32,000 nt of DNA from positions 480,001 to 512,000 of the forward strand of contig CP061211.1 in the NCBI GenBank assembly GCA_026016245.1. Reading direction: 5' to 3'. Positions 27,867 through 30,836 of the stretch are shown here, one piece after another; the stretch's first letter is position 1; each line of letters begins with the position of its first letter. The stretch is from Candidatus Pacearchaeota archaeon. Its GTDB lineage: Archaea; Nanobdellota; Nanobdellia; Pacearchaeales; UBA284. Position numbers and translations under genes: made by a program. The notes below the pieces were generated by a model, which was given only the letters and a program-made list of their open reading frames with translations, made no database searches and was not told where the DNA came from.

Positions 27867-27908
27867 TTTTAGTTGTTTTTAATTATTTTTTAATATTTTG
27901 ATTAAAAC

Positions 27909-27923
27909 GAACAAATATATAAA
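27909..27923. repeat. left arm of perfect 15-bp inverted repeat GAACAAATATATAAA
   Basis: Its reverse complement TTTATATATTTGTTC occurs at 28045-28059. On the minus strand it reads as a TATA-like box about 50 nt upstream of the recombinase ATG (27866). Confidence 0.8.
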
Positions 27924-28044
27924 CTTTTGTAGTTCTCCTAATGCACCTTGTGCGCACTTTTGGCCTGTTTTCGACGAGAAATAGTCTTATGCAGTAACTT
28001 ATTGGCAACGCTTAAAACTTTTAGCTTTGGTTTTAGACGACAAA

Positions 28045-28059
28045 TTTATATATTTGTTC
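28045..28059. repeat. right arm of 15-bp inverted repeat TTTATATATTTGTTC
   Basis: The TATA-like part at 28045-28052 lies about 25 nt before ATG 28074. Confidence 0.8.
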
Positions 28060-28364: not shown

Positions 28365-28658
28365 TCAGCTTTTCTTAGCTCCCCACTTAGAGAATAAGAC
28401 AAGGGCCATCACACAGACTATTGTTATTAATATTGCTGAGTAGATTTTGTAAAGATAGGCTTGTTGTATCTGAATGCCCATATTTACTATGAAAGCATTA
28501 ATACCCTCTTGTATAGCATCTCTCCATACTAAAGCTATGAGAAAAGCAAAACCAGCTGTGATTGCTGTGGCTATATGGGTCCTAAATCCTTTTCTAAATT
28601 CTTGCTCTAGATTCTTTGCTGTGCTTAAAACTTTTGATTTTCTGAACCTCTTTTTCAT
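28365..28658 (-). CDS. small 2-TM membrane protein
   Basis: 97 aa. Basic N-terminus, then TAITAGFAFLIALVWRDAIQ and ILITIVCVMALVLF helices. Confidence 0.55.
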   Translation of the reverse strand: MKKRFRKSKVLSTAKNLEQEFRKGFRTHIATAITAGFAFLIALVWRDAIQEGINAFIVNMGIQIQQAYLYKIYSAILITIVCVMALVLFSKWGAKKS

Positions 28659-28776: not shown

Positions 28777-29409
28777 ATGGGTTTTCTATGGTTCGGAAAA
28801 AAGAAAAAAGGAGATGAATCTGATAAAATTAAAGATGAAGTTAAGTCTTCTTTTGAAAATGTTAAGCGAGATATGTCCAAAATAAGCCGTTGGATTAGAC
28901 ATTTGGACACTAAAGACAATGTTCTAGAGGGTGAAATGGGTATGATTAGAGATGAAATTGGGGGTATAAAGCAAGATATCGACGGGATTAAAAGTTTTGT
29001 TTCTTTCTTTGATACACGTCTGGCAAGCAGGATTTTCAAGCAAAAACAAACACCTGTCCATAAACAAACAGCTGTCCAAGCTGTCCAAACACCTGTCCAA
29101 ACAGTTGTTCAAACAGCAATTTTAAGGGGTTTGACAGCAAATGAAAGACTTATAATATGGACTTTGCTTAATACTGATCTTAAATTGAGCTATGATGATA
29201 TTGCAGTTTTATTAGGAAAAGAAAAATCTACTGTGAGGGGCCAGATTAATAGTATCAAACAAAAAAGTGGCATTGGATTGATAAATGAATTTTTAGAAAT
29301 ATCTGGAAAAAAAAGATATTATATTAATGAAAAAGTTAGAAACACAATTTTTAAGTCAATCAAGGTAAAAACTAGAAAAATAGAAAAAACAGGAAGAGGC
29401 AAAAAGTAG
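28777..29409 (+). CDS. coiled-coil + Q/T/V-rich linker + C-terminal winged-helix protein
   Basis: The track ORF starts at TTG 28762; ATG 28777 (MGFLWFGKKKK) is preferred. VKSSFENVKRDM coiled-coil start. C-terminal LTANERLIIWTLLNTDLKLSYDDIAVLLGKEKSTVRGQINSIKQK wHTH. Confidence 0.6.
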   Translation: MGFLWFGKKKKGDESDKIKDEVKSSFENVKRDMSKISRWIRHLDTKDNVLEGEMGMIRDEIGGIKQDIDGIKSFVSFFDTRLASRIFKQKQTPVHKQTAVQAVQTPVQTVVQTAILRGLTANERLIIWTLLNTDLKLSYDDIAVLLGKEKSTVRGQINSIKQKSGIGLINEFLEISGKKRYYINEKVRNTIFKSIKVKTRKIEKTGRGKK

Positions 29410-29837
29410 AAAAGATAAGTTTTGGGCTAGATGAGATATAGGTAAAGTCAAGCTAAATTATGAATTTTATGAGTTGAAATATAGGAAAAGTGAGGCATCT
29501 ATTTGAATAAACGAACTTTTTAGGCTGAAAATTGCTGAAAAAAGTCTAGAGAAAGAGGAAAAGTGAGAGTTTGTTGTTGGGATTAAAACGAACTACCAAG
29601 GAAAAAACAGAAATAAAAGTGTTTAGGAATAAGTAAAAGTGAGTGTTAGAATTAGTTTATTGGAATTTGTGGATGTTTTAACATACAACATGTGGTATAG
29701 GGTATAGGGTTAGAATACAAGATTTAGTTAAAATAAAGGTTAAATAAGGTTATATGATAGTTATTCGGCTAAGCGTTTTATGATATCTAGTATTAATTTT
29801 ATATCTCTTTAAAACAAATATTCTTCTAGAACTTAAA
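29410..29837 (+). repeat. 428-bp noncoding, G-rich/C-poor spacer with periodic iteron-like motifs
   Basis: A(T/G)AGGNAAAGT(G/C)A(G/A)G-type motif at 29438-29452, 29481-29495, 29554-29568 and 29629-29643. AAACGAACT at 29509-29517 and 29586-29594. GGTATAG GGTATAG GGTTAGA at 29694-29714. No ORF of 60 codons or more. Confidence 0.7.
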
Positions 29838-30485
29838 CTATAGTCCTTTTAATTTTGATAGCTTGTCTAAAGTAGCTAGATCTTTTAATTCTCGAGGTAT
29901 CTTTAGTATGATTATCTTGTTATTAATTTTCTCCTTAATTACTGGTATTCCCTTATGAATAAGTCTGACAACATAATCTCTTATTGAACTTTCTGTTAAT
30001 CCTGTTCTTTGTGCAATATCACTATAAGTTACTTTTTCTAGCTCTTCTTCTAATGTATAGAGAACTGAGAAGATCAGGAATTCTTTGTTTGTTAATGTTT
30101 TGAATTTTTCTCCTAGATCCTGTCTTAATGTGTCAAGAATATCAGAAAGCTGGTTGATTTCTTGTGAATATTCTGGCCTCTTAGAAGCTGTTTCAGGAGT
30201 TCGTTTTAATGGTGTTATTTGTCTGTCGTATGTGTGCTGTCTGTCTGCTGGAACCCCTTCATTTCCTATGGAACTCTGGAAATTTGCTTGTTTTAGGCTG
30301 TAATTCATTAGATTATCTGCCGTATTATGTGTCGTATGTCTGGCTTGTGCTGGAGGTGTGCTGGATAATAGAATTCGCTTAATTTCCTCAATTTCTTGTT
30401 TAAGAATCATAATTTCTTGTTGAAAAAAAAGCATGTCTTCTTTGATTTTTGAGAAAGATTCTCTAACTTTATTTTCATCTATCAT
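29838..30485 (-). CDS. coiled-coil + low-complexity linker + C-terminal winged-helix protein (paralog-like to 28777..29409)
   Basis: 215 aa. VRESFSKIKEDM coiled-coil start. C-terminal LTNKEFLIFSVLYTLEEELEKVTYSDIAQRTGLTESSIRDYVVRLIHKG. Confidence 0.6.
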   Translation of the reverse strand: MIDENKVRESFSKIKEDMLFFQQEIMILKQEIEEIKRILLSSTPPAQARHTTHNTADNLMNYSLKQANFQSSIGNEGVPADRQHTYDRQITPLKRTPETASKRPEYSQEINQLSDILDTLRQDLGEKFKTLTNKEFLIFSVLYTLEEELEKVTYSDIAQRTGLTESSIRDYVVRLIHKGIPVIKEKINNKIIILKIPRELKDLATLDKLSKLKGL

Positions 30486-30527: not shown

Positions 30528-30836
30528 TTATAAAATCCTAGAATCAATTATAAATTTCTGGCTGGCATTATTGATCTTTTTGTAGGCATCATAGACTTTT
30601 GAATCTAAGCGCCACCTTATGCGTCTGCTATAGTCCTGACCTTTTGGATTCTTTTTTATTGCTATGACCAAGCCCTTAGCCTCTAGTCCAAGAAGCAGCT
30701 TTTTCATGTATTCTTCATCTCTGGCCAGTTCTTGAGCTATACGGCATGTGAAAAGGGCTTTTGGGGAGTGTTGGAAAAGGAAATGAAGTATTGATTCTTT
30801 TATCTTTTCCTCTTTTCTTATTGATATTCTTGGCAT
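30528..30836 (-). CDS. winged-helix DNA-binding protein
   Basis: 102 aa. ILHFLFQHSPKALFTCRIAQELARDEEYMKKLLLGLEAKGLVIAIKK. Confidence 0.6.
   Translation of the reverse strand: MPRISIRKEEKIKESILHFLFQHSPKALFTCRIAQELARDEEYMKKLLLGLEAKGLVIAIKKNPKGQDYSRRIRWRLDSKVYDAYKKINNASQKFIIDSRIL

Follow-up and report, generated by a model that had tools for sequence, protein, structure and literature searches.

A conserved non-coding array of same-orientation boxes between two convergent winged-helix genes of Pacearchaeota

The window analysed here is a 32,000-nucleotide stretch (positions 480001-512000) of a Candidatus Pacearchaeota genome that is assembled as a single contig of 710,724 bp (32% G+C, about 92% complete). 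Within it, a 428-bp spacer separates the 3' ends of two convergent genes, here called A and B, which are accompanied by a small gene C and a gene for a DUF5654 protein (Table 1). The position of the spacer between two 3' ends, which an earlier note on this DNA had pointed out as unusual, was borne out by a genome-wide comparison, in which it is the third-longest convergent gap of a genome whose median convergent gap is 8 nt. Among the papers searched, none deals with the motif or the locus.

Table 1 Features of the spacer locus, in window coordinates.
Feature	Position	Strand	Description
One-mismatch copy of the 13-mer	27901-27913	+	at the edge of the inverted-repeat element
Inverted-repeat element	27909-28059		15-bp inverted repeats; between a recombinase gene and the DUF5654 gene
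DUF5654 small membrane protein	28365..28658	-	Pfam 7e-14; conserved divergent neighbour of A
Gene A	28777..29409	+	candidate box-binding protein; single-copy core gene of the order
Whole spacer	29410..29837	+	purine-rich, C-poor, non-coding; between the stop codons of A and B
Degenerate box copy	29438..29452	+	weak, 3 mismatches; 43 nt (about 4 turns) before copy 1
Box copy 1	29484..29498	+	core AAAAGTGAG at 29486-29494; weight-matrix score 19.1, third best in genome
Half-site AAACGAACT	29509..29517	+	family-specific second half-site; partner of copy 1
Box copy 2	29557..29572	+	core at 29559-29567; weight-matrix score 26.7, best in genome
13-mer half-site ending in AAACGAACT	29582..29594	+	family-specific; 9-11 variable nt after box 2
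Box copy 3	29633..29648	+	core at 29635-29643; weight-matrix score 22.5, second best
Family-conserved blocks	29683..29752	+	words of ACAAnAT.TGG type and a AGGTTAAATAAGG block
3' block, ATTCGG core	29759..29773	+	near the B-side end in most family spacers
Gene B	29838..30485	-	distant paralogue of A and convergent with it; has a coiled coil, a low-complexity linker and a wHTH
Exact copy of the 13-mer	30198..30210	-	inside B, on the B sense strand
Gene C	30528..30836	-	small protein; co-oriented upstream of B, syntenic

The spacer is strongly skewed in composition. Positions 29401-29760 contain A151 C19 G85 T105, which reproduces exactly the 85 G and 19 C counted earlier, and the resulting GC skew of 0.63 is the highest among all 360-nt windows of the 710,724-bp genome, 11 other loci reaching 0.58-0.61. 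The reported absence of an open reading frame was likewise upheld: stops occur in all frames, stop-to-stop frames that lie in the spacer or reach into it measure at most 41-42 aa, and homologous spacers lack the 3-nt periodicity of coding DNA (power 0.6-0.8 vs 8.2 in the A coding sequence). Small ORFs were rejected as the frames vary between relatives, and a Shine-Dalgarno reading of the box was rejected as just 4 bp pair with the 16S 3' end. The spacer was also considered as a decayed copy of B; a 13-mer common to both is real, while the other resemblance, to the N-terminal codons of B, is unconserved.

Each motif described earlier was found at its quoted coordinates, including the AAACGAACT repeats at 29509 and 29586. 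The tandem of GGTATAG words is present as well, but it is unconserved in the closest relative. The boxes have a consensus of about nGnAAAAGTGAGrGTTA with a core word of AAAGTGAG type, and all spacer boxes are direct copies in the same orientation. The word AAAAGTGAG occurs three times in the 32-kb window, always within 158 nt of spacer, where about one occurrence per window is expected, and ten times in the genome. When the genome was scanned with a weight matrix built from the boxes of other genomes, the top three scores were the three box copies of the spacer. Of the copies, box 2 fits the order-wide consensus best and does not vary among 4 genera, and the 13-mer half-site that follows it is invariant in three (g1, g4 and g7). 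Furthermore, the ATTCGG-core block is unique in the genome at up to 3 mismatches, chance-level matches aside. A search for antisense targets of the spacer elsewhere in the genome found none above chance.

The 13-mer half-site recurs as an exact copy inside B, where it encodes L-K-R-T using the rare Arg codon CGA (2.6% of Arg codons), and a 10-mer of the half-site is found again in the B genes of three other genomes (G001, G003 and G006). This recurrence suggests either nucleotide-level selection or an extra, inverted binding site about 615 bp from box 2.

Conservation of the locus was followed in 143 relatives that were retrieved by alignment of A, and 80 of these loci were retained. The relatives are labelled without exception as MAGs of Pacearchaeota, Woesearchaeota or Nanoarchaeota, which places the present genome among the DPANN archaea. 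The spacer DNA is 73% identical over 385 nt to that of a genome of the same genus (G002), and shorter blocks match in three further genera, so that conserved blocks are found in 4 genera. Eight genomes have in common the gene order DUF5654 gene, A, spacer (216-815 nt), convergent B and C, and convergent B-like genes are present in nearly all of the 80 loci. Box 2 and the 13-nt half-site 9-11 nt downstream are invariant in genomes whose A proteins are 52-76% identical, including genera with A proteins of 52-61% identity, and the intervening bases vary freely; this conservation is far above neutral expectation. Among 69 spacers of at least 100 nt from Pacearchaeota and Woesearchaeota genomes, AAAGTGAG is found just downstream of A on the A-sense strand in 65 and on the opposite strand in none (0/69). 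Across the class, box pairs occur in 57 of 301 genomes vs about 7 control hits, and those in-order hits that were checked lie at the 3' end of A. The composition is conserved as well: the spacers of relatives are G-skewed with about 8% C, and in all of them G is far above C and A above T over the whole spacer.

The spacer is thus a real, strongly conserved, single-copy and syntenic non-coding element. Conservation of the repeats in homologous regions, on which the earlier note had made its readings depend, was found. Its suggestion of a decayed repeat array is refuted, as the spacer is conserved throughout the order, where protein A is 44-60% identical. Nor is the spacer a mobile element or part of an integrated plasmid or virus, since 50 of the 52 genomes sampled within the order have one copy of A and its locus is syntenic.

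The arrangement of the boxes follows the pitch of the DNA helix. Box-to-box distances in the spacers of the order are phase-locked at 10.5 bp (Rayleigh R=0.49, p=1.7e-8 for adjacent pairs, mean phase 0.3; p=2.4e-10 for all box pairs), these p-values being optimistic since the genomes in the statistic are related, and R peaks at exactly 10.5 and is at most 0.23 beyond the 10-11 bp range. The core spacings of 43, 73 and 76 nt in the present spacer, which agree with those first reported, equal about 4, 7 and 7 turns, so that what had been described as a 75-bp periodicity is a spacing of seven helical turns. A-runs around the boxes recur at about -21, -10, 0, +11, +22 and +34, and the A content across 63 spacers gives a sharp spectral line at 10.5 nt (z=31 over shuffles), with 31 of the 63 above the 5% white-noise level for this periodicity. 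Normalised 10.5-nt power is 4.2 in the spacers, compared with 1.4-1.5 in the flanks of the locus and 1.1-1.3 in other intergenic regions or random windows of this genome, and it is still 3.5 when every box plus or minus 12 nt is masked. Moreover, a wedge model with provisional parameters predicts, for 56 of 58 loci, a stronger curvature in the spacer than in the remainder of the locus. The spacer of the present genome is a moderate example, as its 10.5-nt power is 2.15, its A-tract phasing has a p of about 0.06 and its curvature in the wedge model ranks at the 92nd percentile and peaks locally beyond the 99th. Phasing, periodicity and curvature are properties of duplex DNA, not of RNA, and a loose repeat of purine-rich, A-tract-bearing turns on one strand accounts for the skew.

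The proteins encoded beside the spacer have the features of DNA-binding proteins. In an AF2 model of A, a long helix (residues 12-83) leads through a disordered linker to a wHTH domain (residues 113-183), which is followed by a basic C-terminal helix; the wHTH is modelled as a three-helix bundle plus a beta-hairpin wing at a pLDDT of 91-94, and its best Foldseek matches are the Lrs14-like AbfR2 (6cmv) and MarR/MepR, with E values from 6e-5 to 1e-3. At the sequence level, no Pfam HTH family is matched by A at its cut-off, and the profile matches to Sta1 (18.5 bits vs a cut-off of 80) and Lrs14 are weak and sub-threshold. The N-terminus of A is invariant and of a hydrophobic-polybasic type, M-G-F-L-W/F-F-G followed by lysines. 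B is related to A over the wHTH (BLASTP, E=0.001). Of 8 members of the B family, all match HTH_24 and 5 match DnaD_N, the matches to DnaD_N and to HTH_36 being weak. For C, the model has a wHTH-like H-H-H-b-b-H topology at low confidence (pLDDT 62), the PDB profile matches are weak and the match to TubR is non-significant (E=0.18). No NTPase domain was detected when A, B, C and another six genes from about 3.6 kb around the locus were scanned against Pfam. The linkers of A and B are themselves repetitive: an in-frame microrepeat of 9-18 nt and of CAAACAGCTGTC type (window positions 29044-29117) encodes the Q/T/V-rich linker of A, and at the equivalent position the linkers of B homologues read G-N-x-G-V-x-T-D-R-Q, followed by T-D/N-R/Q-Q repeats.

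Outside the order, eight loci from five other families of the class were examined. All eight contain arrays of 4-10 boxes, situated 200-730 bp upstream of a distant A-like gene and pointing away from it, and these A-like genes encode the same type of N-terminal hydrophobic-polybasic start and a C-terminal wHTH of TrmB/MarR type. No helical phasing was seen in the other-family arrays (R=0.19, p=0.19), and in none of five genomes searched from these families was the array found on the contig carrying cdc6. The array is thus found beside A-like genes in two arrangements, which indicates that the partnership of gene and site survives rearrangement.

Taken together, we consider it probable that the box array is bound by A-family proteins, which build a higher-order nucleoprotein complex on one face of bent DNA. 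The spacer would then be a cis-acting DNA element composed of same-orientation recognition boxes, each of which, in the family of this genome, would be lengthened by another half-site placed one helical turn beyond it. These boxes would most likely be bound by the adjacent A, and perhaps by B too; the wHTH of the A family would read the box, and the long coiled coil would oligomerise or bridge. Since the Pacearchaeota boxes lie whole turns apart within phased A-tracts, they all face one side of the bent DNA, and such one-sided boxes on intrinsically bent DNA would favour the cooperative assembly of a wrapped, higher-order complex. Iterons, plasmid centromeres (parC/ParR, tubC/TubR) and some nucleation sites of nucleoid proteins work by assembly of this kind. 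Binding of the boxes by A and B, the formation of a multi-protein complex and the role of that complex are inferences. As the boxes, phased on bent DNA in related genomes, are always found beside genes for coiled-coil DNA-binding proteins, the spacer is most likely a docking site for these proteins. As to its role, we rank a locus-specific site that organises or anchors the chromosome, or resembles a centromere, above a simple operator, and the array may also feed back on the expression of A and B.

Several observations fit this reading less well. The box is asymmetric, while most dimers of MarR/Lrs14 type recognise palindromic sites; no gene for a partner NTPase was seen next to the locus; and the arrays of other families show neither helical phasing nor proximity to an origin. 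An iteron-like array of boxes tied to the flanking wHTH genes, which the earlier note had offered as one of three readings, is retained here on account of the strand-fixed boxes, the helical phasing, the bent DNA and the gene adjacency that survives rearrangement. The plasmid or virus origin that went with it is not, given the single-copy, syntenic A (50/52) and a classical oriC 15 kb away.

The strict orientation of the boxes on one strand and the purine-rich, C-poor composition would equally suit an RNA. The alternative that survives best is accordingly a sponge or decoy, namely an unstructured, purine-rich RNA of the + strand (the 3' UTR of A or a separate sRNA) whose AAAGUGAG words titrate or recruit an RNA-binding factor. 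The confinement of the boxes to one strand would suit such an RNA, as would the excess of G over C and of A over T in all relatives, which resembles the sense strands of this genome. The number of boxes varies, as in sponge RNAs, the 13-mer is also carried by the sense strand of the B mRNA, and one box hairpin keeps its pairing through a U-G wobble that is workable on the + strand only. However, the 10.5-nt periodicity, the whole-turn spacing of the boxes and the curvature have no rationale in an RNA, the box 2 hairpin lacks compensatory changes and is disrupted in several genomes, and no conserved promoter or terminator ends were found. In other families, moreover, an array that is upstream of the A-like gene and on the other strand cannot be the UTR of A. 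We regard the sponge as unlikely.

A structured RNA, the second of the readings offered earlier, was not borne out. RNAalifold returned 0 consensus pairs among 8 spacers, folding stability relative to shuffles gave z-scores of +0.41 and +0.16 on the two strands, and no match in the window reached the gathering threshold of Rfam 15, a permissive scan of the spacer giving a chance hit in B only; the same three results weigh against the sponge. No tRNA or tmRNA was found. Among specific candidates, C/D or H/ACA sRNAs were rejected by eye, with no conserved C, D or ACA boxes after the modules; a K-turn reading of GUGA/CGAA was rejected as the flanking stems are unpaired; and the box hairpin was rejected as a functional unit, its 3' arm being invariant and its 5' arm varying without compensation. 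The SRP RNA is located elsewhere, at genome position 282484. RNase P RNA had been suspected from words resembling CR-I and CR-V, but the full-length RF00373 match lies elsewhere, at genome positions 629486-629925 (-). That match scores 69.6 bits, under the Rfam gathering score of 84, and represents a divergent RNase P RNA that would escape standard annotation.

The position of the array relative to the origin of replication raises a further alternative. The only orc1/cdc6 gene of the genome (genome positions 525374-526612) lies 15.5 kb from the spacer, and the likely oriC is directly upstream of it (525005-525373), where two direct and one inverted box of ORB type (TTTCCAnnGGAAA core with a G-string; 525073-525293, outside the spacer) surround an AT-rich palindromic stretch. 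Like an archaeal oriC, the spacer is a long intergenic stretch of an archaeal chromosome with several copies of a box. Its AAAGTGAG-type boxes are, however, unrelated in sequence to ORB or mini-ORB boxes (a TCCA..GGAAA-type dyad plus G-string), all copies are direct with none inverted around an AT-rich unwinding element, and the array is not adjacent to orc1/cdc6. With a canonical ORB-type oriC 15 kb off, the spacer is not the chromosomal replication origin.

It could still be a replication-linked element by oriC, either an origin-proximal anchoring site or a protein-bound polar fork barrier or terminus, which would halt the fork that moves from oriC to the array and thereby leave most of the chromosome to be copied one way. 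All 6 Pacearchaeota genomes for which long contigs exist carry the array 4-16 kb from orc1/cdc6 and upstream of oriC, with A pointing toward oriC every time. The convergence of A and B at the spacer is of the kind seen at a terminus, and the wHTH protein B has weak matches to DnaD_N and HTH_36. In addition, once the coding-strand effect is removed, the residual GC skew does not flip at oriC in 4 of the 6 genomes (G000, G061, G063 and G065), in which a G excess of 0.04-0.11 keeps one sign along the entire assembly (14/14, 19/20, 20/20 and 18/20 segments), always on the sense strand of A and cdc6, and the gene-strand bias agrees with it in direction. Against this, the other two genomes (G062 and G064) have no such skew, gene orientation between the array and oriC is mixed, and proximity to the origin is possibly plain synteny. 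Archaeal skews are weak and have other causes, the gene calls used here are crude, and in other families the array was off the cdc6 contig in all five genomes searched, so that origin proximity failed as a general property. A replication-linked element is therefore quite unlikely in our view. Its stronger form, in which an origin-proximal polar fork barrier or terminus causes the chromosome to be copied essentially one way, would explain the one-signed skew and gene-strand bias of the four assemblies, and is highly improbable. Unidirectional replication or another strand-wide asymmetry is a possible source of the one-signed skew.

The location of the array between convergent genes also brings to mind a transcription insulator or terminator zone, where bent DNA and bound protein would block read-through and collisions. 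Oligo-T is the intrinsic termination signal of archaea, and on the strand read from B the boxes are T-tracts preceded by CTCAC, the complement of each box having a run of four or more T, with further T-runs following; the array, moreover, always faces the 3' end of a convergent gene, in Pacearchaeota and in other families alike. Yet a terminator has no need for an invariant word of 8-13 nt in 3-10 copies, for whole-turn phasing or for 400-1100 bp, the median convergent gap of this genome being 8 nt, and it would leave the link to A-like genes unexplained. We hold it to be very unlikely. Finally, we give next to no credence to the idea that the spacer is an additional replication origin of iteron type, or that of an integrated plasmid or virus, with A and B as initiators: direct repeats in helical phase on bent DNA beside wH protein genes do resemble iteron plasmids, a tyrosine recombinase lies 1.5 kb away and B has its weak DnaD_N and HTH_36 matches, but the canonical ORB-type oriC beside the only orc1/cdc6 is 15 kb off, A is a vertically inherited single-copy core gene (50/52 genomes) in a synteny stable throughout the order, A and B lack helicase-loading, primase or Rep catalytic domains, and no distinct unwinding element is evident.

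The preferred reading, a complex of A-family proteins on the box array, has counterparts among known systems. The iterons of theta plasmids, with winged-helix initiators of RepA/RepE/pi type, similarly consist of several asymmetric boxes in the same orientation on one face of bent DNA, beside the gene of a winged-helix protein, and vary in copy number between relatives; the direct repeats found here beside A are in helical phase throughout the order (10.5-bp phase-locking). Iterons are tight units of 22 bp, whereas the spacing here is 34-210 bp, and the present array is chromosomal, single-copy and vertically inherited, with a canonical Orc1/Cdc6 origin elsewhere. Nor is it on a mobile or extrachromosomal replicon with an initiator of Rep type: A is syntenic and folds like Lrs14/MarR, and A and B have one wHTH plus a coiled coil instead of the two-WH fold of Rep.

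In partition centromeres (parC/ParR, tubC/TubR and the pNOB8 AspA site), direct, helix-phased repeats wrap an oligomeric adaptor, which is a wHTH protein in TubR and AspA. Here too a repeat array lies beside the gene of a small DNA-binding protein, the wHTH genes of the A family, in two arrangements, and outside Pacearchaeota the site adjoins the adaptor-type gene on its upstream side. The basic N-terminal peptide of A is similar, though only in type, to tails by which partner ATPases are contacted. The repeats of the spacer are more widely spaced than those of centromeres, and at the locus no motor gene of ParM, TubZ or ParA type was seen. Archaeal wHTH regulators and nucleoid proteins of Lrs14/Sta1/MarR type provide the best structural matches to the C-terminal domain of A, to which A adds a 70-residue coiled coil, a disordered linker and the conserved N-terminal hydrophobic-polybasic peptide, its sequence scoring under every family cut-off. 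To our knowledge, no dedicated multi-box array has been described for Lrs14 proteins. More distant analogies are offered by the EBV oriP family of repeats with EBNA1, and by RacA-ram and Noc-NBS of B. subtilis, where a sequence-specific protein on an origin-near repeat cluster acts in tethering, in organisation or in the blocking of forks. In Noc and RacA, DNA binding goes together with attachment to the membrane or pole, to which the N-terminus of A might likewise serve. These proteins have no homology to A or B and serve as analogies only, and the origin proximity of the present array is confined to one order.

DPANN archaea are uncultivated and, as far as we know, their chromosome organisation, segregation and regulation are almost unstudied. 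The present analysis defines an order-wide cis-element of precise geometry, class-wide in a looser form, and points to the proteins that probably act with it, a family without annotation whose members have a coiled coil, a wHTH and a conserved peptide at the N-terminus. What had been hypothetical proteins plus a long gap becomes a testable DNA-protein system of small, expressible proteins and a 428-bp site. Should the complex turn out to act as a centromere, membrane anchor or fork barrier, no element of that kind would have been described before in this lineage.

Two variations of the locus were observed in relatives. In genus g24 (G036, G058, G304 and G240), a second box pair of AAAGTGAG type is located on the opposite strand, about 2.3-2.6 kb from the A-side array, and with this second pair near the A locus the genus may bear two inverted arrays that bracket a gene block. 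In families f25 and f28 (L215, L216, L218, L221 and L222), the far side of the array is in every case formed by the 3' end of a conserved protein of ~145 aa, which is unannotated and has no Pfam match, and a second A-like paralogue lies 1-2 kb away.
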